Assembly (NCBI GenBank): GCA_038279365.1
Contig: JAYODI010000004.1
Coordinates: 21,256 to 85,255 of the forward strand
Direction: 5' to 3'
DNA: 64,000 nucleotides
DNA from: Candidatus Latescibacterota bacterium
GTDB taxonomy: Bacteria > Latescibacterota > UBA2968
Shown here in pieces: positions 6,278 to 63,360 of this stretch; position 1 is the stretch's first letter, and each line of letters starts with the position of its first letter. Position numbers and translations under genes: made by a program. Below the pieces are notes generated by a model. The model had not been told where the DNA came from. It worked only from the letters and a program-made list of their open reading frames with translations, and did not search any database.

Positions 6278-7578
6278 TCCATTAATCGGGCGTTGTATTG
6301 GCGGGATGTATTTTTGAAACCATGAAATGACCGTTTTGCATCTAATTGGGTGGTGTAAATAAATATTTCTGTTGCCCACGGATTATAAATCAAGAGGTCG
6401 TCGTGGTGGTCTTGGCAGAAGTTGCCCGGAATACAGTGATACCATCCCATTTTTTCAGGGCCAATAGGAGGAGGCAAGTTGGGCAGTGGGTAGGCATTGC
6501 CGCAGCCGTCAAACAGAGTGCCTCCATTGTAAATCAGGTCTATGCCACCGTTCCAATGAATGACTTCCATGCCGGTTTCATTGGGTGAGTGATTCAGTGA
6601 AAAATTTTGGATAATATTGCCTTTTTGATCTGCAATTAACAGATCTGGATTGTGCCCGTTGTAGCGAATGGCCATTTGGGGATGCGCGCGATCGGATAAA
6701 AAATGGCCCACGCGCACTTCTTGTCCGTGGGGTACTTTGTTTTCGCCCAAAGACAAAATAACTTCCCCATCTTGGTCGAGCACGTGGCCTCCTCCTGAGC
6801 AAATGGCACGAGGTGTGTTTGCATCCCAGTTCACAATGGCCACAGAGTCCATATTGGGAGCCAGTTGTTTTTCCCAGCGTGGTGTGCCATTGGCATTAAG
6901 GATGTAGTAACCCCCATTGATTTCGTCTAAACCGTCGTTGTTCAGGTCACCAATAGCAGGGATATACGCGGAGCATTGGCTGTATGTGTTCCAGGGTATG
7001 GTATATTGCCACAAAAGATTGAGGTGGTTATCAAAGGTGAGGAGCTTTTCTCCCAATTTTATGACAAGGTCTTGTGCATACGGTGTGCCACGTAGGTTTG
7101 CGATGAGCAATCTTTGGTGGCACCAATTGGGGCCCCATCCTGTTGCGTTTTGTATCGCGGCGGGATTTTTTTCTGTGATGATCTGTCCCGTTTGGCCATT
7201 TCGGATCTGAAAAACAACATCAGTCATGGCCTCCTTGGGGGTTCCTTTTTGTGGGCAATGATAAAAGCAAATCACTTCGTCGCACCCATCGCCATTGATG
7301 TCATAAAGGGTCACGGAAGCCGGCCGAAGGGGTTGGTTGCCACCCGATCCCACTTGCCAAAGAACATCACCTGATTCGGTGAATGCGGCCAAAAAACAAG
7401 GTTTAAGTTCGCTTTGGGCATCGCAGCGATAAACCAAAAAGTCGGCTCTGCCATTGCCTGTAAGGTCGCCAACACGAATATCACCACCAAATTTTATGGT
7501 TTGATTCTGCCATTCGGTTTGGGTGCACAGTGATTGGGGGATCGGAATTCGCTTTTGATACAAGGTGGGCATATTCAT
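6274..7578 (-). CDS. FG-GAP/VCBS-type beta-propeller protein (rhamnogalacturonan lyase family 11-like)
   Basis: Repeated Ca-binding loops GDLTGNGRADF, YDINGDGCDEV, GDLNNDGLDEI. Start moved to ATG 7578 (ATGA overlap with ABC ATPase stop). Confidence 0.6.
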   Translation of the reverse strand: MNMPTLYQKRIPIPQSLCTQTEWQNQTIKFGGDIRVGDLTGNGRADFLVYRCDAQSELKPCFLAAFTESGDVLWQVGSGGNQPLRPASVTLYDINGDGCDEVICFYHCPQKGTPKEAMTDVVFQIRNGQTGQIITEKNPAAIQNATGWGPNWCHQRLLIANLRGTPYAQDLVIKLGEKLLTFDNHLNLLWQYTIPWNTYSQCSAYIPAIGDLNNDGLDEINGGYYILNANGTPRWEKQLAPNMDSVAIVNWDANTPRAICSGGGHVLDQDGEVILSLGENKVPHGQEVRVGHFLSDRAHPQMAIRYNGHNPDLLIADQKGNIIQNFSLNHSPNETGMEVIHWNGGIDLIYNGGTLFDGCGNAYPLPNLPPPIGPEKMGWYHCIPGNFCQDHHDDLLIYNPWATEIFIYTTQLDAKRSFHGFKNTSRQYNARLMD

Positions 7579-8615
7579 ACTTTGGGCCAAATCATGAGGT
7601 GATTTTGGATGATGTTTGGGTAGATGGTGTCGCCAACATTGTGGGCAGAGTGACCAGATAGGAGAAGGTGAATGGGCTCGTTTGCCCAATGGGCAAGTAA
7701 GATGGTGGAAGGTCCCATGTCTTCGATGACGGCAATGGTTGCAGGTATTTTACCACCGTCTAAGGTGATTGCTTCAGGGCGAATACCCAATGTGGCTTTG
7801 GGTGGGCTGTTTGGGTGGGCTTCAACAATAGGATGGTGCGATGATGTGTGCCAATACCCATTTACCTGATAGGCATCGATCAAGTTGATGGGGGGGTAAC
7901 CGAGTTGGCGAGCGATGCCGGGTGTGTGGGGGTGGTTGTAAATGTCTTGAGGGGAACCGGTTTGTAAGATGTGCCCTTCAGACAAGACCACAATGCGATC
8001 TGCAATGGAGAGGGCTTCTGTTTGATCGTGGGTCACGTAGATCATGGGGATGCGCAATTCGCGCTGAAGGCGAATGATTTCCACGCGCAATATTTCACGC
8101 AATTTGGCATCGAGGTTGGTGAGGGGCTCATCCAGCAAAAAAAGTTTGGGGCGGCGCACGATCGCCCGGCCAATGGCCACCCGTTGCATTTCTCCCCCCG
8201 AAAGATGCGTGGCGGGGCGATTGAGTAAGGGGGTGATGTGAAGGGTTTCGGCCACGCCTAAGATGCGCGTTTCAATTTCACTTTCTGTGAGATTTTGTTT
8301 GGGCGCACGCAGTGGAAAGGCGAGGTTTTCTTTGACGGTTTTGTTGGGGTAGAGCGAAAAATTTTGAAAAACAAGTGCGATGTCGCGTTCGGCGGGTGGG
8401 GTATGTGTGATGTCTATGCCGTGCAGTGTGATGTGGCCACAATTGGGTTCTTCCAAACCGGCAAGGGTGCGCAAGAGTGTGGTTTTGCCAGCACCCGTTG
8501 GTCCAAGAACAACCAATCTTTCTCCGGCATGCAGGTCTAAAAATATCTCTGAAAGTGCTTGGGTTTGTCCAAATGTTTTGCTCACATTTGTGAGTGTGAG
8601 AATGGGCGCACTCAT
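7575..8615 (-). CDS. Carbohydrate ABC transporter ATP-binding subunit (MalK-like)
   Basis: GPTGAGKT, LSGGEMQR, LLDEP, YVTHDQ, TOBE-like tail. Confidence 0.92.
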   Translation of the reverse strand: MSAPILTLTNVSKTFGQTQALSEIFLDLHAGERLVVLGPTGAGKTTLLRTLAGLEEPNCGHITLHGIDITHTPPAERDIALVFQNFSLYPNKTVKENLAFPLRAPKQNLTESEIETRILGVAETLHITPLLNRPATHLSGGEMQRVAIGRAIVRRPKLFLLDEPLTNLDAKLREILRVEIIRLQRELRIPMIYVTHDQTEALSIADRIVVLSEGHILQTGSPQDIYNHPHTPGIARQLGYPPINLIDAYQVNGYWHTSSHHPIVEAHPNSPPKATLGIRPEAITLDGGKIPATIAVIEDMGPSTILLAHWANEPIHLLLSGHSAHNVGDTIYPNIIQNHLMIWPKV

Positions 8616-42711: not shown

Positions 42712-42827
42712 TTATTATGTGTGTCGTATGAAATACCAAAAACAATTTCGTTTAGAGCAATTATTCAAAGGCATTTTAAATGGTTCAAAGTTGTAATCAA
42801 TCAAATTTCTACTGGGGGGTAGATAGA

Positions 42828-45800
42828 ATGAAGCAAGTTGTGAAGGGTTTGTTTGGTTTTTCAATGGTTATGGCTTTTTTGCTTGGGGGCATGACAAATG
42901 CTGCTCATGCAGAAAACGTCACTTTTCGTCTGATTAATTTGGATGGTGTGGCTATTACGGGCGATATCCAAGGGTTTCGCCAATACAGCTCCAGTCCGTG
43001 GGCTCCTTCTCCGGCAACAGTTGATGTGGGAAGTTTGCCAACAAATGTAACTGTGAACAGTAAGTTTATTGGTCTTTATGGTTCAACGGTGCCTCAACAA
43101 TCAGTAACAACAACCAATAAGATTGTTGCTGGTGATAGCCTTGTGATTGATGGCTTAAGCAAGGCCGAGCTTTTCCGTGGTCCAAGTGTTTCAGGGAATA
43201 CTTCTGTTAATATCGTTTATAATGCGGTTCAGCCCACTTTTGGCACTGTGGGTATTAACGGCAACGATTTAACGGGTGGGCAAATCATTTTTCCCGTATT
43301 TAATCAAACCCATAACGCACCTTATACACCCGCTGGTTTTGTGATGCACAATTATGGCGTTAGTGTTCGTGGTCGTGTAGGGACAAATGAGACGCCAACC
43401 AAGATCATTAATATCAAACGCAATACCATTGCGACAATTGATGGTCAAAATGTAAGTAATGTAACGGAGTTGCCTTATTCTGGAACGCGTGTCAATTTCA
43501 AATTTGGTGTTTTTGTTCTTCCCATTGCTGTTGTTAATAGCTCTGGTGCACCTATTGCGGGAGATATCAAGGTTGCTAGTGGTACATTTCAACCTTCACC
43601 TGTCACGTTGTTCAACCAATTACCTGGTGCACAAGTGGCTATTCAGGGCCGTGTGGGTACTGCTACCAGTGCAAACAAGGTTATGACGTTAGACCCCAAT
43701 ACAACCTATAACATTGCTTGGGATGGTGCTCTTTCAACTCAGAACACACCTGGCGATGCCAAGGTAAATGTGGTGTATTCCACGGTCTCTTATGATGTTG
43801 TGGTTCGTGACTTAAATGGTGCAGTAATCTATAATGTTGATAACACAACGCCTATGGGGCAAGTATCTGTTGTTGGACAAACAACGGGTTTTGTTGCAAG
43901 TGGTTTTGGAGGCACGATTCAAAGTGGTGGCGTCATTGATGTGAAGGGGCGCTTTGACGACTTAACTTCTTCCAAACAACTTCGAATGGTGAAAGACTCA
44001 ACGCATGTGGTGAGCACGGGGAATGGCGTTGTCAGCCGAATTTATACACCGGGTCAATCTCGTGTTGAGTTTCGTTTTGATGCAATTTTGTTTACCACCG
44101 AAATCATCAATGAATTGGGTTTTAACATTGAGGGTGCCTTGGTTCGTGTTGTAGACTACACCGACGTGAATGGTCTTCCTACCTTTGTCAACTCGCCCTA
44201 TTCTATAAAGATTCGTGGTGGAAATGACTTGAACATCGAAATGCAATATGCAACTTATCAGGAACAATTCAATATTAATACAGTAGGTGGCACTGTTTTC
44301 TTGTATGATGCAAATGGTGCGGCTGGCACAACAGGAACGGATGCCAATAAGGGTGGTGCGCGTGCACAAATTGACGATGCACCCGTCACCATTCGTACCA
44401 CCGATGGCACAAACCCTATCAATGGAAAAATTAAACTTGGTGGCCAAAATTTTGTTGATTCACCGATTGTTGATTTGGCAGCTTTAGATGGTGATGTGAT
44501 CAACATTGAAGCCGAATACTTGGGTTCATTGCTTGATAATGTTGAAATCACGATTAAAGAAGATGTGACACAAACAATCAATGCAAGCAGCGTGCCCCCT
44601 GTCATTACAGAAACACCAACACCGGGCGCCACGATGATTGATGTGGTGTTTGCGCCTACCACGGTTTCAATTGTTGTTACCGACTTGGCTGGCAATTTGA
44701 TTTACAATATGGACGGTACTACCTTAATGGGTGAGGTTCTGCTCAATGTGGGTACCAATCCTACGTTCCAGAAAATGAAAGATTTGGGTGTTGATGGTAT
44801 TACGCACAACACATTGAGTGGCACCACGCTGGGTGTGCGCGGTCGTTTTGACGATTTGACAACAGGCTTTTTGTCTGCACTTGTTAAGGCCAATCACACC
44901 ACTGTCATTAGTGCTGGAAATGGTGTGGTAAGCCCGCCTGTAAGCACTCCAGGTGTGACACGAATTGAATTTCGTTTTGATGCAATTGAATTTACCACAG
45001 AAGTTATCAGCGACTTAGGTTATAACATTGACAATGCGTTGGTTCGCGTGGTGGACTATACGGATATCAATGGTGTTGAAAACTTTGTGAATTCCCCATT
45101 TGTGATGAAGATGCGTGCTGGCAATGACTTGAACATTGAACTCAAGTATGCCACGTATCAAGAGCAATTTAACATTCTCTCACAAGGTGGCACCGTTTAC
45201 TTGTTTGATGCAAGTGGTCCTGCTGGCACAACTGGCACAGATTCCAATAAGGGTGGTGCACGGGCTCAGATTGACGATGCTCCCGTGACCATTCGCACCA
45301 CCAATGGGGTTGATCCTATTGCGGGTAAGATCAAGTTGGGTGGACAAAATTCTGTCGATTCACCCATTGTTGATTTGGCAGCACTGGATGGTGACGTTCT
45401 CAATATTGAAGCCGAATATTTGGGATCATTGATGGACAATGTGGAAGTCACTGTGAAAGAAGATGTGACACAAACCGTTGATGCTGGAACGGGTACCATT
45501 ACAGAAGTATCCACACCAGGTACGACATTGATCAACATCTCTTTTGCAGAAATGACAGTAAATGTTTTAGCCACAGACTTAAATGGGAATCCGATCTTAG
45601 GCTTAGACGGGCAAACGGTATTGGGTGAAGTATTTGTTAATGGTCTCACACCAAGCTTTGTGCCATCGGGTTACACGTTCCAATCGATTAGTGGGAAGTT
45701 GTTTGGTTTTCGTGCACGCTTTGACGATTTGAACTCCACATTTTTGGGTGTGCCAGTTGTCAAAGGCAAGACCATTCCAATCAACGTCGCCAGCAGCACG

Positions 45801-48521
45801 GTGGGAACCGCATTTGATTCACCAGATGGATCAACCCGCGTTGAAATGCGTTTTGACCCAGTGGTATTTACCACTGATGTGTTGAATGATTTGGGTGAGA
45901 ACCTCAGCATTGCCAAAGTGCGTCTTGTGGGCATTACCGATGTGGGTGCAACGCCTACATTTGTGAACTCGCCATTCTTAGCCGTTTTGCGCAATGGCCG
46001 TTTGCTCAATATTGAAGTGGCATATGGCTTGTTTGAGTCACAATTTGACCTGACTGTTGTGAGTGGTTCGGTTCAAGGTTTTGATATTGCAGGCAATTCA
46101 ACAGGGTCTTCGCCCGCACCTGCGGGGCAGGGTGGTGCCCGTACCATCGTTGATGATGCAACGGTAACGATTCAAACGGTTGAGGGCACAACACCTGTTG
46201 CGGGTACGGTTAATGTCGAACTGTATACCAATTTATTTGAAGGCTCACCTGTTACAATTGATGCCATTCCTGATGGCACACCGATTGAGATTGAAGCCCG
46301 ATACAATGGGGTCACGCTCAATACGGTTGCAGTAACAGTTACGGAAGATCATACCATAACCGTGAATGCGCTTACAGGAACAGTTGGTCAAGCCGTATCA
46401 ACACCAGGCACCACATTGATTAACCTCGACTTTAAGCCCAATGTGCCACCCGTGTTAAGTGTGTTGACAAAACCAACCAATCCTTCGGTTCCTGTGTTGA
46501 CCAGTGACGTTACTGTTCAGGGGCCTGTTTATGATGCCGATAACAATTTGGTTTCTGTGGTGGTGACCTTGGATGAAGGCACACCAAACGAAATAGTTGT
46601 TGTGGCAACGCTTACAGAAAACAACACGGTGTTTACCGCAGAGTTTTCTGGGGTGAGTGATGGTTCACACGCGCTGAAAATTGTTGCAACAGACGCATTT
46701 GGTGCAACTGATACAAAAACATCAGAATTTTTGGTGCAAACCAATTCTGCACCCGTTGCTCAAGCTGGTGAAGATCAACCCGCGGTTTCTGCAACAGGTA
46801 TTTTAACAGCTGTCACATTGGATGGATCACTTTCAAGTGATCCAGATGAAGACCCATTAACATTTGCTTGGACCGATGGTCAGGGTGCCCCTGTTGGTGC
46901 CGAGGCTGTTGTGACATTGAGCTTGCCCTTGGGAACGCACACCTTTACCCTTACGGTTAATGATGGTAAAGGTGGTACGGCCACAGATGATGTGACCGTA
47001 ACCATTGTGGATGTGACAGCCCCCGTAATTACGGCAATTGACGCACCCACAACGGTTCATTGCTCACCCGAAGGTAATACTTTTGCGGTGACGGTAACCG
47101 CACAAGACAACGTGACAGCCCCTGAAGATTTGGTTTATCACTGGACTGTAGATGGTGTCATTTTGGAAGGTGTGACGGGTAACAGTGCTTCTATTACTAT
47201 AGAAGGTCTTGGTGGTCACACGATTGTTGTCACTGTGCGTGATGGTGCTGGCAATGTATCTAATCCCGACACGGTTGGTGATGGTGAAGTTAGTGGTCTC
47301 TTTGTGGTCACATTGGATGACAACACTGCCCCCGATGTGGTTGCTGAATTGATTCCTATTGTTCAAGATAACGGTGACAGCAAGAGCAAAAAGAGCTCGA
47401 AGAGTTCAAAGAGCAAAAAATTGGCTTACGAAGTCAATCTCGAAGCCACCGATCATTGTGATCTAACACCAGTTGTCACGGGTGTTATTTATCAACCTTT
47501 GAACGAGTTGACCGATGATGTGCAAGTGAAGTTCAAAGACAGCAAGAATAAGAATGAGATTAAGATTCAGGTTAAAAATGACAAAACAATTGTTACACTC
47601 TATGGACAAGATGAAAGTGCCTTGCGTGCACTGCTCTTTGGCCCAGTTGGCTTGCCTGGAGAAGGCGCTATAGAACAAGGCGGTTTCTCTGTTGTTGATG
47701 GTCAGATTTTGGTCTTAAGTGCCTCGGATAATGATGACGGGGAAGACGATAACGATGGTGATGATGATGGAAAAGGCAAGAGCAAGAAGAGCAGCAAAAG
47801 CAAGAAAAGCAAGAAGAGCAGCAAGGGTAACGGAGATGATAGTGGCTCAGACAATGGGAACAATGGCAAGAGCCATGTCAGCAATGATCAAAATGGTGAT
47901 GGTAACGGTAATAACGGCAAGAGCGAAGTAAGCAACGACAATAACAGTGGTGTAGCAAGCAAGGACAGCAAAGACAAGGGCAAGAAAAAGGCTGGTAAGA
48001 TTGTCTTGTTACAATCTGAACGTGTTTTAGGAACGTTTAAATACACCTTTGAAACCAACGACTTAAATGAGTTGGTGCTTGTTGAAGTCTCTGGCCCTGT
48101 TGTTAAGATGCTGGCTTTTGCCACTGATGCTTCTGGGAATATTTCAGAAACCATCGAAGTTTTCCCACCCGCGCACAACTTGTCGAAGCCGGTGTTGACC
48201 AAGCCAGTGTTGACCAAACCTTTGGCTGACAATACTTCGGAATTGACATTTGGTTTGGGCCAAAATTATCCAAACCCATTTAACCCTTCAACGGCCATTC
48301 AATACACTTTGTCTGAAGCATCCGACGTTCGATTGGTTGTTTACAATGTGCTCGGACAGCAAGTGCGCGTGTTGATGAATCGCACGCAAGGGGCTGGTGT
48401 TCATACGGTTGAGTGGAATGGTGATGATGAATTAGGCCGTCAGGTTGCTACAGGGGTGTATATTTATCACCTTGTAGCAGGCAAGAACATGGCCCTGAAA
48501 AAGATGATCTTCTCCAAATAG
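42828..48521 (+). CDS. Giant secreted beta-rich repeat protein with PKD-like domain and FlgD-Ig/T9SS-type C-terminal domain
   Basis: Signal peptide MKQVVK...AAHA; tandem ~100-aa beta modules; PKD-like 'APVAQAGEDQ...LDGSLSSDPD...TFTLTVND'; terminal 'QNYPNPFNPSTAIQY...VYNVLGQQV...WNG...ATGVYIY...KKM'. Confidence 0.88.
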   Translation: MKQVVKGLFGFSMVMAFLLGGMTNAAHAENVTFRLINLDGVAITGDIQGFRQYSSSPWAPSPATVDVGSLPTNVTVNSKFIGLYGSTVPQQSVTTTNKIVAGDSLVIDGLSKAELFRGPSVSGNTSVNIVYNAVQPTFGTVGINGNDLTGGQIIFPVFNQTHNAPYTPAGFVMHNYGVSVRGRVGTNETPTKIINIKRNTIATIDGQNVSNVTELPYSGTRVNFKFGVFVLPIAVVNSSGAPIAGDIKVASGTFQPSPVTLFNQLPGAQVAIQGRVGTATSANKVMTLDPNTTYNIAWDGALSTQNTPGDAKVNVVYSTVSYDVVVRDLNGAVIYNVDNTTPMGQVSVVGQTTGFVASGFGGTIQSGGVIDVKGRFDDLTSSKQLRMVKDSTHVVSTGNGVVSRIYTPGQSRVEFRFDAILFTTEIINELGFNIEGALVRVVDYTDVNGLPTFVNSPYSIKIRGGNDLNIEMQYATYQEQFNINTVGGTVFLYDANGAAGTTGTDANKGGARAQIDDAPVTIRTTDGTNPINGKIKLGGQNFVDSPIVDLAALDGDVINIEAEYLGSLLDNVEITIKEDVTQTINASSVPPVITETPTPGATMIDVVFAPTTVSIVVTDLAGNLIYNMDGTTLMGEVLLNVGTNPTFQKMKDLGVDGITHNTLSGTTLGVRGRFDDLTTGFLSALVKANHTTVISAGNGVVSPPVSTPGVTRIEFRFDAIEFTTEVISDLGYNIDNALVRVVDYTDINGVENFVNSPFVMKMRAGNDLNIELKYATYQEQFNILSQGGTVYLFDASGPAGTTGTDSNKGGARAQIDDAPVTIRTTNGVDPIAGKIKLGGQNSVDSPIVDLAALDGDVLNIEAEYLGSLMDNVEVTVKEDVTQTVDAGTGTITEVSTPGTTLINISFAEMTVNVLATDLNGNPILGLDGQTVLGEVFVNGLTPSFVPSGYTFQSISGKLFGFRARFDDLNSTFLGVPVVKGKTIPINVASSTVGTAFDSPDGSTRVEMRFDPVVFTTDVLNDLGENLSIAKVRLVGITDVGATPTFVNSPFLAVLRNGRLLNIEVAYGLFESQFDLTVVSGSVQGFDIAGNSTGSSPAPAGQGGARTIVDDATVTIQTVEGTTPVAGTVNVELYTNLFEGSPVTIDAIPDGTPIEIEARYNGVTLNTVAVTVTEDHTITVNALTGTVGQAVSTPGTTLINLDFKPNVPPVLSVLTKPTNPSVPVLTSDVTVQGPVYDADNNLVSVVVTLDEGTPNEIVVVATLTENNTVFTAEFSGVSDGSHALKIVATDAFGATDTKTSEFLVQTNSAPVAQAGEDQPAVSATGILTAVTLDGSLSSDPDEDPLTFAWTDGQGAPVGAEAVVTLSLPLGTHTFTLTVNDGKGGTATDDVTVTIVDVTAPVITAIDAPTTVHCSPEGNTFAVTVTAQDNVTAPEDLVYHWTVDGVILEGVTGNSASITIEGLGGHTIVVTVRDGAGNVSNPDTVGDGEVSGLFVVTLDDNTAPDVVAELIPIVQDNGDSKSKKSSKSSKSKKLAYEVNLEATDHCDLTPVVTGVIYQPLNELTDDVQVKFKDSKNKNEIKIQVKNDKTIVTLYGQDESALRALLFGPVGLPGEGAIEQGGFSVVDGQILVLSASDNDDGEDDNDGDDDGKGKSKKSSKSKKSKKSSKGNGDDSGSDNGNNGKSHVSNDQNGDGNGNNGKSEVSNDNNSGVASKDSKDKGKKKAGKIVLLQSERVLGTFKYTFETNDLNELVLVEVSGPVVKMLAFATDASGNISETIEVFPPAHNLSKPVLTKPVLTKPLADNTSELTFGLGQNYPNPFNPSTAIQYTLSEASDVRLVVYNVLGQQVRVLMNRTQGAGVHTVEWNGDDELGRQVATGVYIYHLVAGKNMALKKMIFSK
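43790..46435 (+). repeat. Three ~0.88-kb intragenic tandem repeats (~295 aa each)
   Basis: RFDDL recurs near 43950, 44844 and 45717; copies 1 and 2 share long near-identical stretches (NKGGARAQIDDAPVTIRTT, DSPIVDLAALDGDV); copy 3 is diverged. Boundaries approximate. Confidence 0.85.
48186..48220 (+). repeat. 15-bp tandem repeat encoding KPVLT-KPVLT-KP
   Basis: AAGCCGGTGTTGACC AAGCCAGTGTTGACC AAACC. Confidence 0.8.
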
Positions 48522-54987: not shown

Positions 54988-55710
54988 TTATTGAACGGAA
55001 GGAGGGGCAATGGAGGGAGGTGGAGAAAGTGTTGGGTTGTTTTTTAAGGAGTCTTGTGATGCTTCGGCTATTTGTCGCAGTTGTTGGCGAAACCGCTCTA
55101 TTCGGGTGATGGCCACCTGACGGTCTAAATATTGCCCTGTTTTGTAACCCAGTATGGCACTGGCAGTGCTGCCAAGGACAAATGTAGACCAAAACGCAAT
55201 TCGTCCTTTTGTGTGCCCAGAATTATTTCCCGTAAGCTTAATTGGAGCAATCTGATCTTGCATAAAGGTGGCGCCTAAAAAACTAATGGTGGTACCGAGG
55301 AGGCCAATGTTTGTGAGCATATGACGGCGATGGTTGCTACGATGGTTAATGCGAATTTCTTCATTGGATATCAGCTTTTTTTGACTGTCTAAGGTCCCAG
55401 ATACTTTCACGTTGACGACTTCCGACCAAGGTATTGTGGTACCAAAACGTGCCACTTCAACAGGTCTTTGGGTTTTGGTTTGTTTGGGTGTTCGGATGAC
55501 AATGGTGACTTGATCTAAGTAGATCGTGCGGCCTGAATAAACGGTTCCATCTTTCATCAAAAGTTTGACACCGTCACCCACGCGCAGTTTGGCGGGATAA
55601 GGGGGAGATATGACAACAAATGAGGTACAAGAGACAAGTGATAAGGCCATGGCAAGCAAGACACAAATCGATATTGAACATTTAGATTGAGAAATATATT
55701 TGATTTTCAT
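54988..55710 (-). CDS. Hypothetical lipoprotein/membrane protein
   Basis: Lipobox-like 'ALSLVSC', two later hydrophobic Gly-rich helices; ATGA-coupled to the nucleotidyltransferase. Confidence 0.7.
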   Translation of the reverse strand: MKIKYISQSKCSISICVLLAMALSLVSCTSFVVISPPYPAKLRVGDGVKLLMKDGTVYSGRTIYLDQVTIVIRTPKQTKTQRPVEVARFGTTIPWSEVVNVKVSGTLDSQKKLISNEEIRINHRSNHRRHMLTNIGLLGTTISFLGATFMQDQIAPIKLTGNNSGHTKGRIAFWSTFVLGSTASAILGYKTGQYLDRQVAITRIERFRQQLRQIAEASQDSLKNNPTLSPPPSIAPPSVQ

Positions 55711-56864
55711 GATGAACGCTTACCCATTAGACGAAAGACAAGTTTGATTAATTGTATGGTGCCCAAGCTTAATAATTGAACAATGCGATAGGGATATGAA
55801 AGCCAATAAAGTCGGCCCGTTAAACCTGAGATTTGTTGGAGTGCTTCGGGCTTGGGAAATGCAAAAGCTATAAGGAATTTAACTTGATCTATCCGTTTGG
55901 AAAATTGCTGACTCAATACCAAAGGCTCTAACATTTGAAAATGTCCCGGGAGGGGGGAAGCACACAGTATTTTACGCCTGATTGGGCCAATAGGGAAGGA
56001 CTTTTGTAGTTTGTGAACGGGTTTTGGTAGGCTTTGTGCTAAGTGAATTTTCAATGCGTGTAGTGTGAGCGATAAGATATTGGTTGTGTTGTATGTTTGG
56101 CAATGTTTTTCAATGTGTGGCCAAGTATTGTTTTGACAACAAACTTTGAGGCTGTATAATATATCAAAAAGCCAAATATGTCTTTCGTAACCGTGTTTTA
56201 GGGCGTGAACGGATAGGGTTAAGATTTGGTCGGGGGGGCTAAGCATCAAGAGGTTGTGTGAGGTGGCTCTTAGGGGGATTGCATTTTGCCACAACTGTTC
56301 AAGTTGGATAGGGACGGCTTGGAGGCGTTGTTGAATTCTGTTTGCGTGAAATGGATCTGTGTGAATATCGAAGATCACGTTGTCTTTTGCATAGATGTCG
56401 GGGTATTGTTCGGGCGATCTATACTGCTGGGTGTAAAGACATTGTTTTAGGATATGAAGATGTTCTGGTTTTACGAGAATGTCTATATCTGTCATTGGGC
56501 GAAAAGCAGGGTTGATATAGACGTGCTCGATAAGGGCAGGGCCTTTCAAGATGAGTAACGGTATGTCTGGGGATAGGTCGTTGCGCAGTCTCTCTATGGC
56601 TTGTAGATTGCGTAAATTATGAGACAATGTTCTGTAATAGGCGAGTTTGAACTTTTGAGCAATTGAAGATGGCACATCATCTAATAGATTGGATAAATGC
56701 AGACCTTGGTATATAAGAGGAACAAGGCCATGTCTTTGGGCATGGCGGTAAAGCATTTCAGGCGATGGGCACTGAAGATGGTCCTTGTTCAGTGCTTTTG
56801 TATTTTTGCCTGTTATGGCAATATCTACCAGTTGGGCAGTTAATTTTGTAATAGAGGATGGCAT
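55707..56864 (-). CDS. NTP_transf_5 family nucleotidyltransferase
   Basis: 'AQRHGLVPL', 'LILKGPAL...Y...RPMTDIDILV', 'DIH', 'HALKH...WLFDI'. Start moved to MPSSIT (56864). Confidence 0.85.
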   Translation of the reverse strand: MPSSITKLTAQLVDIAITGKNTKALNKDHLQCPSPEMLYRHAQRHGLVPLIYQGLHLSNLLDDVPSSIAQKFKLAYYRTLSHNLRNLQAIERLRNDLSPDIPLLILKGPALIEHVYINPAFRPMTDIDILVKPEHLHILKQCLYTQQYRSPEQYPDIYAKDNVIFDIHTDPFHANRIQQRLQAVPIQLEQLWQNAIPLRATSHNLLMLSPPDQILTLSVHALKHGYERHIWLFDILYSLKVCCQNNTWPHIEKHCQTYNTTNILSLTLHALKIHLAQSLPKPVHKLQKSFPIGPIRRKILCASPLPGHFQMLEPLVLSQQFSKRIDQVKFLIAFAFPKPEALQQISGLTGRLYWLSYPYRIVQLLSLGTIQLIKLVFRLMGKRSS

Positions 56865-56865
56865 C

Positions 56866-58125
56866 GTGATATCTGTCTTTAACTCAAATGAAACGCGATT
56901 TGTGTGGCAACATCTCATATGGGCCGGATTTGTTCAGTTCTTGATCGTTTTGGCCACATTGCCTCTGCCTGAAATGGGTGATTTGACCATGTATAAGCTG
57001 TGGGCAAATGAGATTTATGATGAAGGGATTTATGCTGCATATACAGGCCCCCATATCCAGTTTGATCAATATCCTCTCTATTTGTATGTCAGCAAGTTTG
57101 TCGGTGGCGTTTATCAAATATCTGGTTTGTATGATTTGTTTGGGACGTGGAGTCGTGCCCTGTCTTTATTGCTCAAATGTGCAATGGTGGCATGTCACCT
57201 TGCCACAGCACTATTGGTTTATCATTTGGCAAGGGTGATGGGATATGGTTCTGAAACGGCCCAAACTTGTTTTATGGTGTTTGTGTGGAATCCCGGAATT
57301 TTAATTGCAACAGTGCTATATGGTTATCAAGATGCATTTCATACCTTGCTGTTGGCGGGGGGCTTGTTTTGTTTGTTTTCCTATAAAATGAACTGGGCTT
57401 GGGTCTTTTGTGCACTGATTTTTATGACCAAACCGCAAGCGGCGGTTTATTTGGGTCCCATAGGTTTTTACGGCATTTTTCGATACGGTTGGTCATGGGG
57501 GCTACGAGCGATCGGGGTGGCGCTTGTGGTTTGGGCCATTGTGCTGAGTCCTTTTTGGATATATGGTGATTTGTGGGGTGTGTTCAATATGTATTTGGGC
57601 ACAGCCAATGTTCACGAATGGTTGACAGGTTATGCCCATAATTTTTGGTGGTTGTTTGAACCAGTTCCTGCGTTTACCAGTGACCGATTGCCCATCCTTT
57701 GGGGGTGGAATGGTTTGCAAATTGGGCTTGTGGTCTTCGCAGGGATTACGACTGTCGTTTGTTTCTCTTTATACAAAAAGACATCTGCGGTGTCTTTGGT
57801 TGATGCGTGTGGGCTTGTGGGGTTGACGTTGTTTATGGTATTGACAGAGATTCATGAAAATCACCATTATGCTGTGTTTTTGTTTTTGGCATTGTTGGCA
57901 CGTTCAAAGGGGTTTCGTTGGATGTATTATATTTTAAGTTTGACTTTTGCTGTTAATTTGATGGCTGCGAAGCAGTGGTTGGAAACGGAGTCGATTTTGG
58001 AAATTGGTTTTTTGCGTTTGGATACGATCAATGCCATGATCAATGGTTTGGCATTTCTGTTTTGGCTCTACCTGTTTTTTGTTCAACAAAAAGAAGTGAA
58101 CCAACAGGATAATTTGGTGTCATAA
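56866..58125 (+). CDS. GT-C-like integral membrane glycosyltransferase (GT87/ALG-like)
   Basis: 'GDLTMY..W', 'QYPLYLY', 'WNPG', 'GYQD', 'TKPQ', 'IHENH'; multi-TM. Start inferred at GTG 56866 after GAGGA (ORF track gives 56785). Confidence 0.7.
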   Translation: MISVFNSNETRFVWQHLIWAGFVQFLIVLATLPLPEMGDLTMYKLWANEIYDEGIYAAYTGPHIQFDQYPLYLYVSKFVGGVYQISGLYDLFGTWSRALSLLLKCAMVACHLATALLVYHLARVMGYGSETAQTCFMVFVWNPGILIATVLYGYQDAFHTLLLAGGLFCLFSYKMNWAWVFCALIFMTKPQAAVYLGPIGFYGIFRYGWSWGLRAIGVALVVWAIVLSPFWIYGDLWGVFNMYLGTANVHEWLTGYAHNFWWLFEPVPAFTSDRLPILWGWNGLQIGLVVFAGITTVVCFSLYKKTSAVSLVDACGLVGLTLFMVLTEIHENHHYAVFLFLALLARSKGFRWMYYILSLTFAVNLMAAKQWLETESILEIGFLRLDTINAMINGLAFLFWLYLFFVQQKEVNQQDNLVS

Positions 58126-58445
58126 TGCGTCATTATTTAACAAAATGGGTCGATGCATTAAATCTGTTGCATGTCGATCTGACAGACTTTTTGACGGATC
58201 GACAAATTGGTAAAATGGAAGATCGCCCCGTGATGTTGCATCAGTTTGCACAATTTTTGGCAGGGTATTATCGCCACGTGAATGGGCGCCATGTTGCCAT
58301 TTATGTGGATAGTTGGGTGTCTTTAAATGGACGGCCTTACCAAAGATTGGTTGATGGAGACCGAGATTTGGGCAATACGCCATTCAGCTTGATTGCGTCA
58401 GCCAATTGGATTTTAAAATTGAACGACAGTGAAGAATGGGATTGA
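58125..58445 (+). pseudogene. Isolated C-terminal fragment of an HTTM/vitamin K-dependent gamma-carboxylase-like protein
   Basis: 'FLTDRQ...M...PVMLHQFAQFLA...IYVDSWVSLNGRPYQRLVD' resembles the C-terminus of bacterial VKGC-like proteins; the N-terminal membrane part is absent. Could be a functional stand-alone domain. Confidence 0.55.
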
Positions 58446-58446
58446 T

Positions 58447-59913
58447 TTATAATTTGTAAACCACAGCGTATTCATCTTCGTAAACTGGGGGGGGCAACAG
58501 AGGGTCTTGTTTGAGGTTGTCTAAAAAGTCACCATCTTTTTTTAAACCAAAGATAAACTGTGCTTGGAAGCGGTCTTTTATTTTGTTTACTGGGTTTGAT
58601 GCATTGCCTTTGGTGATGCGCAACCACACATCGTATAATTGGGCATCGTAATAATAAAGGTAATGGGGGTCGAGGCCCACAATGTAGCGGTTGTGTGTGT
58701 TAAAATGATACAGCAACGGAAAATCATCCCAATTACCTGTAAAGACGATGGTGCCTTTTTCTGATGCCTCTTGTAAGAATTTGGCCGCACCAGAATAAGA
58801 TATGGGTAAACGATCAGAGGCTCGGTATTCGGCCACGTGGTTCAGCGTATCTGCGCCACAAAGCCCAATGAAAAGTGCTATAAAGAGTAGAATGAACTTG
58901 CCGCGAAAAGTTGCCCAAATGTGGGCGATGTTGCAGGTCTTCAAGTAGGGGTTAAGTGCAAAGGCAGAAAAAAGAACGGCAAATACGGGCCAATATTCGA
59001 CAAACCGGCGTACGTTCATATACATACACAACAAAAGTGTAGAAAAAGTAAAGAGAATAAGGGCAGGGAAGGACAGTTTTTCGGGTCTTAAAAAGTAGAA
59101 GGTCGCAGTGGCCAACATAAGAGCCCAAGGCAGAAAGGCATTTCGAACCACAGTTGAGGAGGCATAAGGATAATCTTCGTTGCCTGCCGTGACCACATCG
59201 GCAAATTCAATTTGTGTATAAGATTTATATAGAAACGTGATGTTGTCTGGAAAGTAAGGGTGAATGATTAAACCGAGCGCAATACCCAGCCCACAGTAAA
59301 GTAAAATATGTGGGCGTTTTTTTTGTGTCAAAAATGAGGCAAAAAACACAGAGCTGGCCAATCCTGCTATGAGTGGAAAACCACCATATAACCAAACAAA
59401 AATAAATGAAAGAGGGAGAAACCAACGGTCTTTGTCTGATAATGCAAGAGCTGTGGCGATGAGCAGGATGCAAAGGGATAAGCTTGGGGCTCGTGCCATA
59501 CCGATTCGAAACAAAAACGGGGCGGAGGACGCCAGTAACGCAAGTGTCCATATGGGTGCAAAACGGATGTGATGGTGTTTGAGTATGAAAAAAAAGATGA
59601 GGATTACAAGTGTGCCAAATACCACACCATAAATTTTTGCTCCCGTAATCAAATTTCCAAAGGTGAATGGAATTTGAATGATGTGAAATAGGAAGTGATC
59701 GTCGGCAAAGTTTTGGCTGTAGATGGTGTAGACCAGGTGGGGAAAAGTGTCGGGTATGCCTTCTTGCCATATTTTTTGGCTGTAGCGCATATGAAAATAG
59801 CTGTCTACTCCCATTAGTCCAGGAACGCAGGTAACAAGCCAAGTAAAGAGGGTAACGGACAGGAGTGTGATGCCCGCATATTCTAAATAAGCTGTGCGTG
59901 GGTTAGTGGGCAA
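58447..59913 (-). CDS. Multi-pass membrane protein, GT-C-like
   Basis: First-loop 'GVDSYFH', ~11-13 TM, 'RRFVEY', soluble C-domain 'WDDFP...YIVGLDP'; overlaps the kinase stop. Confidence 0.65.
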   Translation of the reverse strand: MPTNPRTAYLEYAGITLLSVTLFTWLVTCVPGLMGVDSYFHMRYSQKIWQEGIPDTFPHLVYTIYSQNFADDHFLFHIIQIPFTFGNLITGAKIYGVVFGTLVILIFFFILKHHHIRFAPIWTLALLASSAPFLFRIGMARAPSLSLCILLIATALALSDKDRWFLPLSFIFVWLYGGFPLIAGLASSVFFASFLTQKKRPHILLYCGLGIALGLIIHPYFPDNITFLYKSYTQIEFADVVTAGNEDYPYASSTVVRNAFLPWALMLATATFYFLRPEKLSFPALILFTFSTLLLCMYMNVRRFVEYWPVFAVLFSAFALNPYLKTCNIAHIWATFRGKFILLFIALFIGLCGADTLNHVAEYRASDRLPISYSGAAKFLQEASEKGTIVFTGNWDDFPLLYHFNTHNRYIVGLDPHYLYYYDAQLYDVWLRITKGNASNPVNKIKDRFQAQFIFGLKKDGDFLDNLKQDPLLPPPVYEDEYAVVYKL

Positions 59914-60730
59914 GATTTTGAACCTCTGTTATGGCATCGCTCAAATTGTTCATGGTGAGCTCATATGAAGGAACGGTTTCAACAATGTGCCCCAATGTAT
60001 CTAATATTTTGGGCGACTGCGTGCGTTTGTAGGTCAGTTGTAATAAGCGGGTCAAACTCTCTGTGGGAGTCAGTGAAATCAGCTTTTGGGGAGAGGATAA
60101 ATGGAAGTTTGGAAATACAATGATATGAATGGGGCAGGGGTGGTCTTGAGGGATGGTTGTGAATGCTTGTGGCGAAACACAAATGCTGTTGTTGATGGAA
60201 CGTGCAAGGTGTGGTTGTTGCAAAATATGGTTTGTATCTAAAGTTCTAAATATTTGCCCATCATTTTTGATGCACAAGACTCTTGGAAAGGCGTAAGACT
60301 GGGTTGTGTTTGGGCGAATAAATACCATTTCGTCAGACAAAAACCCCCAACCTTGTAAAGCACATCCCAATGTTAAGGTCGACTTGCCTTTGCCTGATTG
60401 ACCAGGAAACAAGATGGTTTTGCCATTGTAAACCACCCCGCCAGAGTGAACACCCAAAAAATTCATGCGATCAAACGCTGAACGAACCAATTGCCATTCA
60501 AATTGTGATATAAATTCATCCAGGGTGGCATAGGTTGTTGGTTGGTCCAGGTTTGGACAAACGCATATTGTTTGATCTGGATTTTGTTGAATGGTAAATG
60601 TGATGGGAGAGGATTGGACGGATGTTTGAAAGCCTGCGAAGATATGCTGGAGATGTTGGGCTATGTGCGCGGCGTTTGTGGAGACCTGAAAGTGTGACTC
60701 AGCAATGGTGAACTGCTGGGTAAAAGTCAT
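59903..60730 (-). CDS. HprK-related (lasso/PqqD-associated type) kinase
   Basis: 'GVHSGGV', Walker A 'GQSGKGKSTL', 'FLSDE', 'AFPR'. Start moved to ATG 60730 (ATGA overlap with the PqqD stop). Confidence 0.85.
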   Translation of the reverse strand: MTFTQQFTIAESHFQVSTNAAHIAQHLQHIFAGFQTSVQSSPITFTIQQNPDQTICVCPNLDQPTTYATLDEFISQFEWQLVRSAFDRMNFLGVHSGGVVYNGKTILFPGQSGKGKSTLTLGCALQGWGFLSDEMVFIRPNTTQSYAFPRVLCIKNDGQIFRTLDTNHILQQPHLARSINNSICVSPQAFTTIPQDHPCPIHIIVFPNFHLSSPQKLISLTPTESLTRLLQLTYKRTQSPKILDTLGHIVETVPSYELTMNNLSDAITEVQNLAH

Positions 60731-61020
60731 TGTGGTGATTTGTTTTGAATGAGGCCGAGGGTAAGGAATTGTTCTAATGTTTGGATGACATCCCGTTGTG
60801 CAACTTCGGGTGAAACTTGGTAAGTACTTAGAAGTTTTGCAATGATCGTTTCGATAGGGGATTGGATGTGCTCCCATACCAACTGTGCGGTAGCATTGAG
60901 TGTGTGGAGGGCATCTTTGTTGGGATCGTATAGCACAAATGCATCACCCACTTCACGAAAAATGATATCCGAATTGGGGACAAACGCAGAAGGGATTGTT
61001 CTGTGGGACATATTCTGCAT
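60727..61020 (-). CDS. Stand-alone PqqD-family RiPP recognition element (RRE)
   Basis: 'REVGDAFVLYD...HTLNATAQLVWE...Y.V...AQRDV...LEQF...GLI', the PqqD winged-helix pattern; ~97 aa. Confidence 0.9.
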   Translation of the reverse strand: MQNMSHRTIPSAFVPNSDIIFREVGDAFVLYDPNKDALHTLNATAQLVWEHIQSPIETIIAKLLSTYQVSPEVAQRDVIQTLEQFLTLGLIQNKSPQ

Positions 61021-61022
61021 GA

Positions 61023-61847
61023 CTACCAATCGTTAAAGTCTTGATCGTATCGAACATTGTCATTGCCTTGAGATTTCACCTCAAAAGCATTGTATTTGGT
61101 ATCTTCTTGGCGGTCAGGATTAATAACGGTCACATTGTGGTTGCCTTCTTGTGCATATAGGCTGATATCAATTCTTGCGCCAATGTGCGTGTCGTCAAAA
61201 AAACGTGTGGATATGACAGTAATGCCACTCCCAAAACTGATTTGGAAGCCTTCTTGGAAATTTTCACCCTTGATATTGATATTGTGTGTTGCATTCGGTT
61301 GCCCCTTGTCGGGGCTGAGCGAGTCTATTTCGGGAGCCTTGCGTGCTTCAACTTCAAAAGCGTTTTTATCGGTGTCACTTTGTCCATTTGGGTTGGTCAC
61401 CGTGACATCGCGTTTGCCTTCATAGGCATAAGACTCTATTTGAATTTCGACAGTCAACAATTCTGAGTTTTCAAAGTTGACACTCAAAACTGTAATGCCC
61501 GAATCAAAATCAACGCGGGCGCTTCTTTCAAAATCTTCACCCCAAACATAGACCGACATTGTGGAGCCTATAAATCCCGTATCGGGTGAAACGCGATCTA
61601 CCTTGGGTTTTTTGGGTGGTGGTGGTGGGATGTTGCCTATGACGCTGGGAGGAGCCGAATTGCTGCTGCCACCACTGCTGCTGTCATCGTCATCGTCGTC
61701 GTCACTGGCTTCGGCTGAAGACAAAAAGATCGATTCAATGGTTGGGGTGGCATAAGGCAATAACAACGCACCTTTGAGACCCTGTTTTAAGAATGATCGG
61801 CGGGTGTCGTCTGGGGTAGGTTCGCGAGGTTCAGATGAATCGGACAT
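61023..61847 (-). CDS. Putative RRE substrate: Tat/YxxP leader, Ser/Asp-rich segment and two IPT/TIG domains
   Basis: TRRSFLK, YATPTI, AEA, S-D7-SSSGGSSNS, poly-Pro, then two homologous ~88-aa modules (P.V..VSP..G...G..F...GITV...G..VTV.NP...NAFEV). Confidence 0.8.
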   Translation of the reverse strand: MSDSSEPREPTPDDTRRSFLKQGLKGALLLPYATPTIESIFLSSAEASDDDDDDDSSSGGSSNSAPPSVIGNIPPPPPKKPKVDRVSPDTGFIGSTMSVYVWGEDFERSARVDFDSGITVLSVNFENSELLTVEIQIESYAYEGKRDVTVTNPNGQSDTDKNAFEVEARKAPEIDSLSPDKGQPNATHNINIKGENFQEGFQISFGSGITVISTRFFDDTHIGARIDISLYAQEGNHNVTVINPDRQEDTKYNAFEVKSQGNDNVRYDQDFNDW

Positions 61848-61929: not shown

Positions 61930-63360
61930 CTACCTGCCTAAGTCTTCTTGGCTGACGGTGTCGGTGATATGTAAAATGGGATGTTCGCGCAAACGGATCT
62001 CTCGTTTGTCTTGAACGGGGCGCCCTTCAATATCGAAGAGAATCAGAATGGCAGGGCGCAGTGGGGAATCTATGTCTGTGTCGATTACGCGACCAATGAT
62101 GCCAGAGTTGAGTTTGACCATGCTGCCTACAGGGAAGGCCGAGAGTGTTTTGAGCAAGATGCGCACGACACGCGGGTCAAATTCTTGTTTGCGTGTTTGT
62201 AAGATTTCTTTTACCGCTTCAAAAGGCAACATGCCCCGTCTGTCTGGGCGAGAGCGGGTGAGACCGGCATAAATATCGGCCACGCCGATGATTTTGGCAT
62301 ATTCGTGTATTTGGTTGCCAGTGAGTCCTTGTGGGTAACCGCCACCATTTTCGCGCTCATGCTCTTGGTAGGCCACTTCTGCCAACCACTGATAGTCTGC
62401 CCCCAATTTGTGAAGGATTGCTCTGCCTTTGGCTGGGTGTTGGTGGAGCATGTCAATGTCATGCTGTGTAAATTGCCCCTTGCTAAACAAATCAGGTGGA
62501 AGGGTAACCATGCCCACGTCATGCATGAGGGCAGAAACACCTAAATCTATTAATTGATTGCGGTTATAAGACAGTCCTTGGCCAATTTTGATGGCGTAAA
62601 TAGATACATTCACAGAATGGAGTACCACAGAAGATGCGAAGCTGTGTTCATCGCCAGATTCGCGCGTATAGATGGCTCTGCGATACAAAATATCTGGGGC
62701 TTTGGGGATATCAACCACCCGTGAAATGAGCACAAAAGCGGGTTCAACCGAAAAGTCTCGACCTTCCTGAGCAGCTTGCATGACCCCTTCCACATATTGA
62801 TAGAGGTCTTCATACATTTTTTCAATTTCTTCTTCAGAAAGTGTGTCGGGCTGTTCGGTTGTGTCTTCTGGCGGCGTTTGGTTTGTTGGTGTATGGGTTT
62901 GTTGTACGGGTTGCTGTGGTTGCTCCTGCACGGGCGCAGGCATGGGTTGTTGTGTGGTTTGGGGCGGGTGTTGGGCCTGGGATTCTGTTGGTTGTTGCTG
63001 TAGGTGTTGTAGTTGTTGGATGCGCCTTTGAATTTCCTCCTGTGACAGCGGTTGTTGTTGGGGAGGCGCATATTGTTGTGGTTGTTGTTTTTCTTGGAGG
63101 GGTTGAACGGGTCGACCAGACACAAAGTCTGAGATGCGGTTGATCTGGTCAATGACTTCCGCTATCGTACCAATTTCATTATACAGCCCTGAAAACATGG
63201 GGAAATTATTAATTTGTCTTTGAGGCGGTTGGGCCATGTTGGGTACACCAGAAAACAAACCCTCTTGGGGTTTGTTTTCTGCAGATGAAGCTGTATCTGG
63301 GGCAGGGTTTGGGGGCAGAGCACCTGCCCCAGCACGCACCATGTCGGAGTTTCGTGGCAT
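61930..63360 (-). CDS. HD-GYP domain protein with Q/P-rich disordered N-terminus
   Basis: 'LHSVNV', 'MHDVG', 'QHP', 'HERENGGGYPQGL', 'VADIY', 'FPVGSMVKLNSG'. Confidence 0.85.
   Translation of the reverse strand: MPRNSDMVRAGAGALPPNPAPDTASSAENKPQEGLFSGVPNMAQPPQRQINNFPMFSGLYNEIGTIAEVIDQINRISDFVSGRPVQPLQEKQQPQQYAPPQQQPLSQEEIQRRIQQLQHLQQQPTESQAQHPPQTTQQPMPAPVQEQPQQPVQQTHTPTNQTPPEDTTEQPDTLSEEEIEKMYEDLYQYVEGVMQAAQEGRDFSVEPAFVLISRVVDIPKAPDILYRRAIYTRESGDEHSFASSVVLHSVNVSIYAIKIGQGLSYNRNQLIDLGVSALMHDVGMVTLPPDLFSKGQFTQHDIDMLHQHPAKGRAILHKLGADYQWLAEVAYQEHERENGGGYPQGLTGNQIHEYAKIIGVADIYAGLTRSRPDRRGMLPFEAVKEILQTRKQEFDPRVVRILLKTLSAFPVGSMVKLNSGIIGRVIDTDIDSPLRPAILILFDIEGRPVQDKREIRLREHPILHITDTVSQEDLGR

Follow-up and report, generated by a model that had tools for sequence, protein, structure and literature searches.

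A leader-bearing IPT/TIG gene and its PqqD and HprK-related neighbors

The 64,000-nucleotide stretch of Candidatus Latescibacterota DNA analyzed here (hereafter the window) carries on its minus strand an open reading frame (ORF) of 274 amino acids that joins an N-terminal leader to two Ig-like domains. A preliminary description of residues 1–76 of this ORF (61620–61847) proposed that its N-terminus merges a twin-arginine translocation (Tat) signal with the YxxP motif by which the leaders of peptides made on the ribosome and modified after translation (RiPPs) engage a RiPP recognition element (RRE), and that an Asp/Ser "core" follows. All of the elements on which it drew (TRRSFLK, GALLLP, YATPTI, SAEA followed by Ser, the Asp run, PPPPP, and two IPT/TIG domains) are present. 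The ORF divides into the following parts, with residue numbers referring to the 274-residue protein:

61023–61847, minus strand: candidate substrate ORF, 274 amino acids from an ATG start, with leader, spacer, proline linker, and two IPT/TIG (Ig-like) domains
61785–61805, minus strand: twin-arginine motif TRRSFLK, residues 15–21
Residues 26–31: GALLLP
61737–61754, minus strand: YATPTI, residues 32–37, a [Y/W/F]xxPx[I/V/L] motif such as RREs bind, within the hydrophobic region of the putative signal
Residues 44–48: SAEA, then S
61707–61715, minus strand: AEA, residues 45–47, predicted signal peptidase I site, called by eye, with the cut before S48
61656–61706, minus strand: seven Asp residues (49–55) and a Ser/Gly-rich tract, together residues 48–64, a variable spacer
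Residues 56–68: SSSGGSSNSAPPS, the Ser/Gly tract with PPS at its end
61632–61652, minus strand: PPSVIGN, residues 66–72, which holds S68 (61644–61646)
Residues 74–78: PPPPP
61080–61604, minus strand: two IPT/TIG (Ig-like) domains, residues ~82–169 and 172–256, the putative exported cargo

With the predicted cut as reference, Y32, P35, and I37 occupy positions −16, −13, and −11. The cargo domains are matched in two stretches each by Pfam TIG (E = 1.4e-13) and NCBIfam CoaZ_rpt_PGGG (E = 1.8e-24). When a profile of the N-terminus is run against all six-frame ORFs of at least 50 amino acids in the 6.03-Mb genome, it retrieves this ORF alone (E = 2.1e-37), and the runner-up scores E = 1.4.

The RRE implied by the preliminary description is real. 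An ORF of the PqqD family lies directly downstream and is followed by a gene for a kinase:

60727–61020, minus strand: PqqD-family RRE (PF05402, E = 3.2e-14), likely start ATG at 61020 or 61011
59903–60730, minus strand: HprK-related kinase with the P-loop GQSGKGKST (TIGR04352, E = 2e-27), likely start M50 of the listed ORF

The PqqD start falls 2–11 nucleotides past the stop codon of the TIG gene (TAG, 61023–61025). M50 of the kinase is invariant in the kinase alignment (A7), and its codon forms an ATGA overlap with the PqqD stop. The spacing of 2 nucleotides between TIG stop and PqqD ATG and the ATGA overlap between PqqD and kinase indicate that the genes are translationally coupled.

Among solved structures, the PqqD profile best matches TfuB1 (6jx3), TbiB1 (5v1u), PbaB1 (9x90_B), and LppB (9x8z_B), the last being the RRE of the LPP pathway considered below. 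In the LppB crystal structure, N33 and D70 fix the kink at the leader proline and hydrogen-bond the leader tyrosine (PMC13381572). N45 and D80 of the PqqD encoded here, both invariant in its family, align with these two residues (numbered with the residue offset of 9x8z_B); the position of LppB F74 is not conserved in the family. The adjacent PqqD belongs to the lasso-B1/LppB type, whose RREs recognize [Y/W]xxP, and keeps both LppB contact residues (PMC13381572), which supports the preliminary description.

Conservation and distribution of the leader

Among 60 database homologues of the protein, the leader N-terminus is found in nine, at the start of the chain in P0001–P0008 and internally in P0015; the others share TIG repeats only. 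RR, [Y/F]xxPx[I/V], and AxA are kept together in all nine, while the cargo consists of two TIG domains, three TIG domains, or short low-complexity tails. An alignment of 10 sequences (A1) leaves R16, R17, F19, A27, L29, L30, P35, E38, L42, P67, S68, and G71 invariant; A47 is nearly so, and Y32 is replaced by Phe in P0015 alone. In an alignment of 18 sequences that includes short peptides (A3), R16, R17, F19, and P35 are invariant. Conservation in A1 resumes past the signal as N-[S/T]-x-x-P-S-x-[I/L]-G-N, followed by prolines. The preliminary description had staked its proposal on YxxP being conserved in RRE-adjacent homologues, and aromatic-xx-P is retained in 9/9. Its broader expectation from such an alignment was borne out for the conserved RR and YxxP and for the variable cargo but not for the Asp/Ser tract. 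That tract varies in length, reads GRGRGRG in P0008, and is absent in P0015, L005, L108, and L110, which marks the presumed "core" as a variable spacer instead.

In three clusters the PqqD domain, a linker, the leader, and TIG sequence are joined in one chain: P0015 (330 residues), P0151 (301 residues), and P0091 (171 residues, cut at the contig end). The RR motif of these fusions is internal, near residues 98–117. P0091 begins with a truncated leader copy (the RR motif and ~10 residues), which is followed by PqqD and then by a complete second leader, an arrangement that resembles a rearrangement or duplication.

An 18-sequence leader profile searched against 1.84 billion representative proteins gave 185 matches at E ≤ 1e-3, 35 of them at E ≤ 1e-10. 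Judged by these profile matches, the leader defines a family of no fewer than 185 protein clusters, most of them peptides of 50–130 amino acids. We examined 147 of the listed representatives, leaving out the repetitive 959-residue match P0189. The RR pattern occurs in 139/147 and aromatic-xx-P in 138/147 (Tyr in 123, Phe in 8, Trp in 7), and 139/147 are no longer than 135 amino acids. Among the eight that miss the RR pattern, three have KR, one RQ, one GR, and two RR with other following residues; in the eighth the motif is absent from a sequence that was apparently cut at its start. In 131/138 representatives with aromatic-xx-P, 14–18 positions separate the aromatic residue from the first small-x-small site that follows it.

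Within the phylum, 25 of 168 genomes are positive for the leader profile, mostly through short ORFs of ~70–130 amino acids. These share a common layout, in which an acidic N-terminus is followed by RRxF[I/L]KK, [Y/W][V/I]AP, a short hydrophobic stretch, and AxA. Their tails are of low complexity and rich in Asp, Lys, or Arg, and contain prolines and a conserved [V/I/T]-S-P that aligns with S68. Some members of the wider leader family (P0142, P0150, P0178, L160 at 6364–6762, and L219 at 467–808) instead have Cys-rich tails, with repeats such as CRRQ.. or C-x-P-x-x-C. The difference between Cys-rich and charged low-complexity tails indicates that the leader serves chemically very different cargos. 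At L109 (G009:C8), a 269-residue transglutaminase-core protein (7723–8532, minus strand), of the same fold class as the lasso B2 peptidases, is encoded ~1.4 kb from an 87-residue leader peptide, with an unassigned 105-residue ORF between them.

The leader and the two enzyme types tend to occur in the same genomes. The PqqD type of this operon is present in 44 and the kinase type in 40 of the 168 genomes. PqqD accompanies the leader in 22/25 leader-positive genomes against 22/143 leader-negative ones (Fisher 1.6e-12), and the kinase in 19/25 against 21/143 (Fisher 1.8e-9), although both values overstate the association because the relatedness of the genomes is ignored. Gene order is also kept. 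Three further genes flank the coupled pair in the window:

61930–63360, minus strand: HD-GYP-type (HD_5) protein (PF13487, E = 5e-29), directly upstream of the cassette
58447–59913, minus strand: polytopic membrane protein of 488 amino acids, directly after the kinase, with no Pfam or NCBIfam match
55707–56918, minus strand: NTP_transf_5 nucleotidyltransferase (PF14907, E = 2e-38), a member of the PsmN/LppN class

The order HD-GYP, leader protein, PqqD, HprK, 488-residue protein, and NTP_transf_5 recurs in L004, L005, and L107, with the homologue in L005 carrying three TIG domains and no Asp/Ser tract. The position of the HD-GYP gene upstream of the cassette is kept in L004, L005, L107, L131, and L111, and that of the gene for the 488-residue protein in L004, L005, L107, L131, and L153. 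In genome G030 (L111), a 97-residue leader peptide without TIG domains lies between a radical-SAM gene and PqqD, after which the start of a kinase-like ORF reaches the contig end. The radical-SAM gene (1201–2358, minus strand, of G030:C77:1-11000) is directly upstream of the leader peptide and hints that this lineage may carry out a further modification. In the class-level family f4, PqqD is directly followed by NTP_transf_5 in 5/5 genomes checked (G112, G116, G120, G157, and G161; L237–L241). The HprK-like kinase and the leader peptide of these five genomes are on other contigs, and the system seems dispersed there.

We also approached the association from the enzyme side, using a sample of 80 metagenomic loci with distant relatives of the kinase (0.51 Mb) and, as a control, 76 unrelated TIG-protein loci (1.21 Mb) taken from 78 loci retrieved through TIG-domain patterns. 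A strict filter that combines RR, aromatic-xx-P, hydrophobic context, and a nearby start codon finds a leader-like ORF in 12/80 kinase loci, two of which (L174 and L212) look false by eye, and in 0/76 controls. A looser listing adds leader-like ORFs in L163, L177, L207, L235, and L236. The leaders at kinase loci carry unrelated tails that are Cys-rich, His/Pro-rich, or Gly-rich, and several place a Ser 3–4 residues past the AxA-like site (...HAQAS, ...HAQTS, ...LAQPGS). Since the N-terminal profile has a single match in the whole genome and the pattern is absent from all 76 control loci, the pattern of the N-terminus is beyond chance.

A probable export signal that may double as a docking leader

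Tat signals carry the consensus S/T-R-R-x-F-L-K near the N-terminus, and a TATFIND-type rule asks in addition that the hydrophobic region be uncharged over about 13 residues or more. TRRSFLK matches this consensus completely, and its RR is conserved family-wide. AxA stands at a fixed distance in the family, the AEA site itself being called by eye; TatC is encoded in the genome (PF00902, 222.7 bits, contig C168); and the cargo, by its Pfam and NCBIfam domains, is of an extracytoplasmic Ig-like type. Residues 1–47, with RRxFLK, a short hydrophobic region, and AxA, are probably a twin-arginine (Tat-type) export signal.

The best candidate for a phosphorylation site, as far as conservation can tell, is S68 in PPSVIGN, which we infer to be a better one than any residue of the Asp/Ser tract. 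P67, S68, and G71 are invariant in A1, and in the short peptides it is the S-P motif that aligns here. S68 lies at +21 from the predicted cut. In spacer-free forms (L005/P0130, P0097, and P0128), a conserved Ser stands 3–4 residues past AxA, as S3 does in LppA, the precursor of the LPP pathway. The Ser cluster that follows the Asp run (S56–S64) might instead be the modified core, with the Asp run aiding recognition: the Ser-rich tract begins just past the predicted cut, close orthologues P0001–P0004 retain such tracts, and the kinase LppK adds several phosphates near the cleavage site (PMC13381572). All of those phosphates, however, are placed on one Ser (PMC13381572), the tract varies in length and content to the point of being replaced or lost in the homologues named above, and the conserved residues in this region are S68 and nearby N63 only, so that we give this placement little credence. 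The Asp/Ser tract was accordingly rejected as a conserved core. Phosphorylation of a C-terminal Ser as in paeninodin was likewise rejected, the C-terminus being a Trp that is not conserved.

As judged by sequence, no described system comes closer than the LPP pathway of Bacillota (lppA-K-B-S-D-N; Popov et al., Nat Commun 2026; PMC13381572). Its precursors of 35–200 amino acids carry the leader YxxPxVLxHQxIxFETxxS, which is bound by the RRE LppB; the HprK-like kinase LppK adds one to four phosphates to core Ser3, and the SipW-like peptidase LppS, a signal peptidase I of archaeal type, cuts after T-1 only if the RRE presents the leader (PMC13381572). The pathway further comprises an uncharacterized NTP transferase, LppN, and an MsbA-like pump, LppD, and its clusters often lie inside capsule loci (PMC13381572). 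In both systems a stand-alone RRE similar to lasso B1, an HprK-like kinase, and an NTP transferase go together with a precursor whose YxxP leader is conserved and whose C-terminal part varies. Y32, P35, and I37 at −16, −13, and −11 match Y-16, P-13, and V-11 of LppA before a signal-peptidase-type cut, N45 and D80 correspond to N33 and D70 of LppB, and both systems reside in a polysaccharide locus. The Ser at +3 or +4 of the spacer-free homologues is comparable to S3 of LppA by positional analogy. The suggestion in the preliminary description that a signal peptidase takes the place of the missing leader protease thus has a published precedent, with identical Y-16/P-13 spacing (PMC13381572).

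The two systems also differ. The leader of the Latescibacterota protein contains AxA and a full twin-arginine motif, which the LPP system lacks, its cargo is a 227-residue two-domain Ig-like protein, and its conserved Ser lies at +21 rather than +3. Our scan of the ORFs from 39456 to 64000, four of which have no family, found no peptidase family that would supply a dedicated, LppS-like or SipW-like signal peptidase, no ABC transporter family that would supply an MsbA-like exporter, and no family of a lasso cyclase (macrolactam synthetase C) or B2 cysteine peptidase. The terms "twin-arginine," "Tat," and "signal peptide" do not occur in the main text of PMC13381572, and our full-text literature search turned up no paper in which Tat signals are brought together with RREs or PqqD, nor the term "HprK-related kinase."

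Paeninodin (PadeK) and pseudomycoidin (PsmK/PsmN) offer a second comparison. As far as an excerpt of PMC8498205 covers them, their pathways resemble the present one in joining an RRE, an HPr-kinase homologue, and an NTP_transf_5-type transferase to a YxxPxL-type leader; in the same excerpt, the lasso-pathway HPr-kinase homologues phosphorylate a C-terminal Ser, and the nucleotidyltransferase PsmN adds a hexose to the phosphate. They differ, to the extent covered there, in that the C-terminus here is not conserved and that neither a lasso cyclase nor a B2 peptidase was found among the scanned ORFs. On these last grounds a lasso peptide identity was rejected.

The reading that we favor, with moderate confidence, is that the 274-residue IPT/TIG protein is a client of the PqqD-type RRE, the HprK-like kinase, and the NTP_transf_5 transferase, and that its leader doubles as a Tat signal and an RRE-docking motif. 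The most economical explanation, and a probable one, is a variant of an LPP-like system that uses a Tat leader and has a protein of full size as its client: the export signal resembles a docking tag for modifying enzymes, and the adjacent kinase set therefore probably decorates the protein before export. The sequence features with their conservation, the coupling of the genes, the fusions, and the co-occurrence across genomes are observed; from them we infer a scheme that covers RRE–leader binding, modification site, chemistry, export route, and RRE-dependent gating of export. The RRE would dock on Y32/P35 in the cytoplasm and recruit the kinase, which would phosphorylate a conserved Ser close behind the signal, with S68 the likeliest; the nucleotidyltransferase may then add a sugar or nucleotide to the phosphate. 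Once modified, and possibly folded, the protein would exit through Tat, and housekeeping signal peptidase I would cut after A47, replacing the dedicated peptidase and the ABC exporter of the LPP pathway. The outcome would be a surface or matrix protein that carries the decoration and belongs to the exopolysaccharide locus.

Several observations weigh against this reading. The leader gene adjoins PqqD in just 5/25 leader-positive genomes (G000, G063, G064, G042, and G030), and leader and cassette are far apart or on separate contigs in G070, G009, and G010. In family f4, short peptides stand beside HTTM/VKGC-like or SDR genes, with the PqqD–NTP_transf_5 pair and the kinase at other loci. No leader was detected in 22 of the 44 PqqD-positive genomes. 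In G065 (L131, G065:C39:2397-6176), the HD-GYP, PqqD, HprK, and 488-residue protein genes are consecutive with no leader gene between them, and a leader-profile search of this 89%-complete genome gave no match. AlphaFold2 left the leader undocked in two natural fusions: the model of P0015 (18-row alignment) has a mean predicted local distance difference test score (pLDDT) of 88.1 with leader residues 115–133 below 50, and that of P0091 (98-row alignment) has a mean of 75.4 with leader blocks at 52–66, where a low-confidence helix (113–130) gives way to coil without beta-augmentation. Because the alignments were unpaired and the summary output alone was used, both folds are uninformative rather than negative. 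On the enzyme side, the lasso HprK-type kinases known from the PMC8498205 excerpt target a C-terminal Ser, whereas the protein here ends in its non-conserved Trp. The locus also resembles NCBIfam HPr-rel-A, in that TIGR04352 and TIGR04353 are the best-scoring families of its adjacent kinase and PqqD genes, but both fall below the curated cut-offs, the kinase with 96 bits against 200 and PqqD with 34.9 bits against 35; the NCBIfam matches of these ORFs include no substrate model.

The leaderless PqqD genomes, the cassette of G065, and the undocked models, together with the presence of the same leader on many short ORFs without a nearby RRE, favor the alternative that the protein is an ordinary exported TIG matrix protein, in which a lineage-specific Tat or Sec signal contains YxxP in its hydrophobic region by chance and the enzymes act on a glycopolymer intermediate or an undetected peptide. 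This alternative sits poorly with the PqqD–leader fusions of three clusters and with the joint presence of the leader and this PqqD type in 22/25 genomes. Nor does it account for leader ORFs with unrelated cargo that adjoin kinase and PqqD genes in diverse metagenomic loci and in none of the 76 controls, for a signal sequence far more conserved than its cargo, or for the conservation of the RRE contact residues. We consider it unlikely.

The remaining counterpoints to a leader with both functions concern the signal itself. The uncharged stretch between K25 and E38 spans 12 residues (G26–I37) and is closed by the invariant E38. The preliminary description had called this hydrophobic region unusually short, which holds in relative terms: it is the shortest among 13 filter-passing Tat-like candidates of the genome, about nine of which look real, and the other 12 have 13–25 uncharged residues. 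Residues 1–83 have no match in Pfam, TAT_signal included, at E ≤ 10, and the N-terminus of the 274-residue protein has no Tat-signal match in NCBIfam at E ≤ 0.01. These points, the internal position of the RR motif in the fusions, and some short forms with just ~8 uncharged residues between KK and E would suit a pure RiPP-type leader with no working Tat signal, whose RRxFLK is an enzyme-recognition surface and whose product stays intracellular or leaves by another route. Yet the motif is a near-invariant match to S/T-R-R-x-F-L-K with substitutions that include KR, the distance to AxA is fixed, the cargo type is extracytoplasmic, TatC is encoded in the genome, and no ABC exporter or dedicated peptidase was found in the operon to replace export and cleavage. 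We therefore hold a leader without export function to be improbable.

A wider form of the favored reading is put forward tentatively, as one that we rate somewhat below an even chance: that a widespread, undescribed class of export signals exists in which the Tat signal is itself the RRE-docking leader, and in which PqqD, in trans or fused in cis ahead of the signal, keeps peptides and even folded full-size proteins in the cytoplasm until an HprK-type kinase and a nucleotidyltransferase have placed a phospho-(glyco) group on a Ser beside the cleavage site, with Tat and the housekeeping signal peptidase acting only afterwards. The Tat proofreading chaperones TorD, DmsD, and NapD bind the signal peptides of their clients until maturation is complete. 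The proposed logic is the same, in that a cytoplasmic protein would hold the client's Tat signal until it is matured; there is no homology, however, PqqD being a winged-helix RRE, and maturation would here mean that the client is covalently modified, not that a cofactor is inserted. If true, PqqD would be a new kind of Tat quality-control factor, and two separately studied fields, RRE leader recognition and Tat recognition and proofreading, would become linked. RiPP logic would reach exported substrates of protein size in exopolysaccharide and biofilm loci, with RiPP-type enzymes acting on a folded 25-kDa protein, and the cytoplasmic, ATP-dependent modification ahead of export would supply a rationale for the use of Tat. 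The catalogued but uncharacterized PqqD/HprK-kinase/nucleotidyltransferase cassettes of polysaccharide loci would also gain a named substrate.

The surrounding exopolysaccharide locus

On the minus strand the genes run in the order ExeA-like AAA protein, HD-GYP protein, TIG protein, PqqD, HprK-related kinase, and 488-residue membrane protein. Further on lie the gene for a 446-residue protein on the other strand, NTP_transf_5, a 240-residue protein, and Wza-like, Wzc-like, Wzy-like, and flippase-type genes, an arrangement that identifies an exopolysaccharide locus. The 446-residue protein is likewise syntenic with the cassette:

56785–58125, plus strand: membrane protein of 446 amino acids, syntenic with the cassette, with a weak match to NF046093 (E = 2e-4)

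A PDB sequence search with the 488- and 446-residue membrane proteins gave no match at E ≤ 1. The language-model neighbors of the 488-residue protein are clusters of PMT_2, STT3/AglB, and Dpy19 (scores 0.94–0.95, 143–150 shared features), and these features offer a lead that it may be a GT-C-type (protein) glycosyltransferase.

Between the genes for these two membrane proteins sits a plus-strand ORF of 106 amino acids (58125–58445) that holds only the C-terminal half of a vitamin-K-carboxylase lumenal domain (PF22777, E = 4.2e-20, profile positions 65–151 of 152) and resembles either a remnant or a small free-standing piece. Full HTTM+VKGC proteins are encoded 1–2 kb from short leader peptides at six f4 loci (L113, L118, L119, L121, L124, and L126). 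The same polysaccharide locus of the window also encodes, on the plus strand (42780–48521), a 1913-residue protein with PKD/Big domains and a C-terminal FlgD_ig-like domain, whose gene adjoins the Wzy-like and flippase-type genes.

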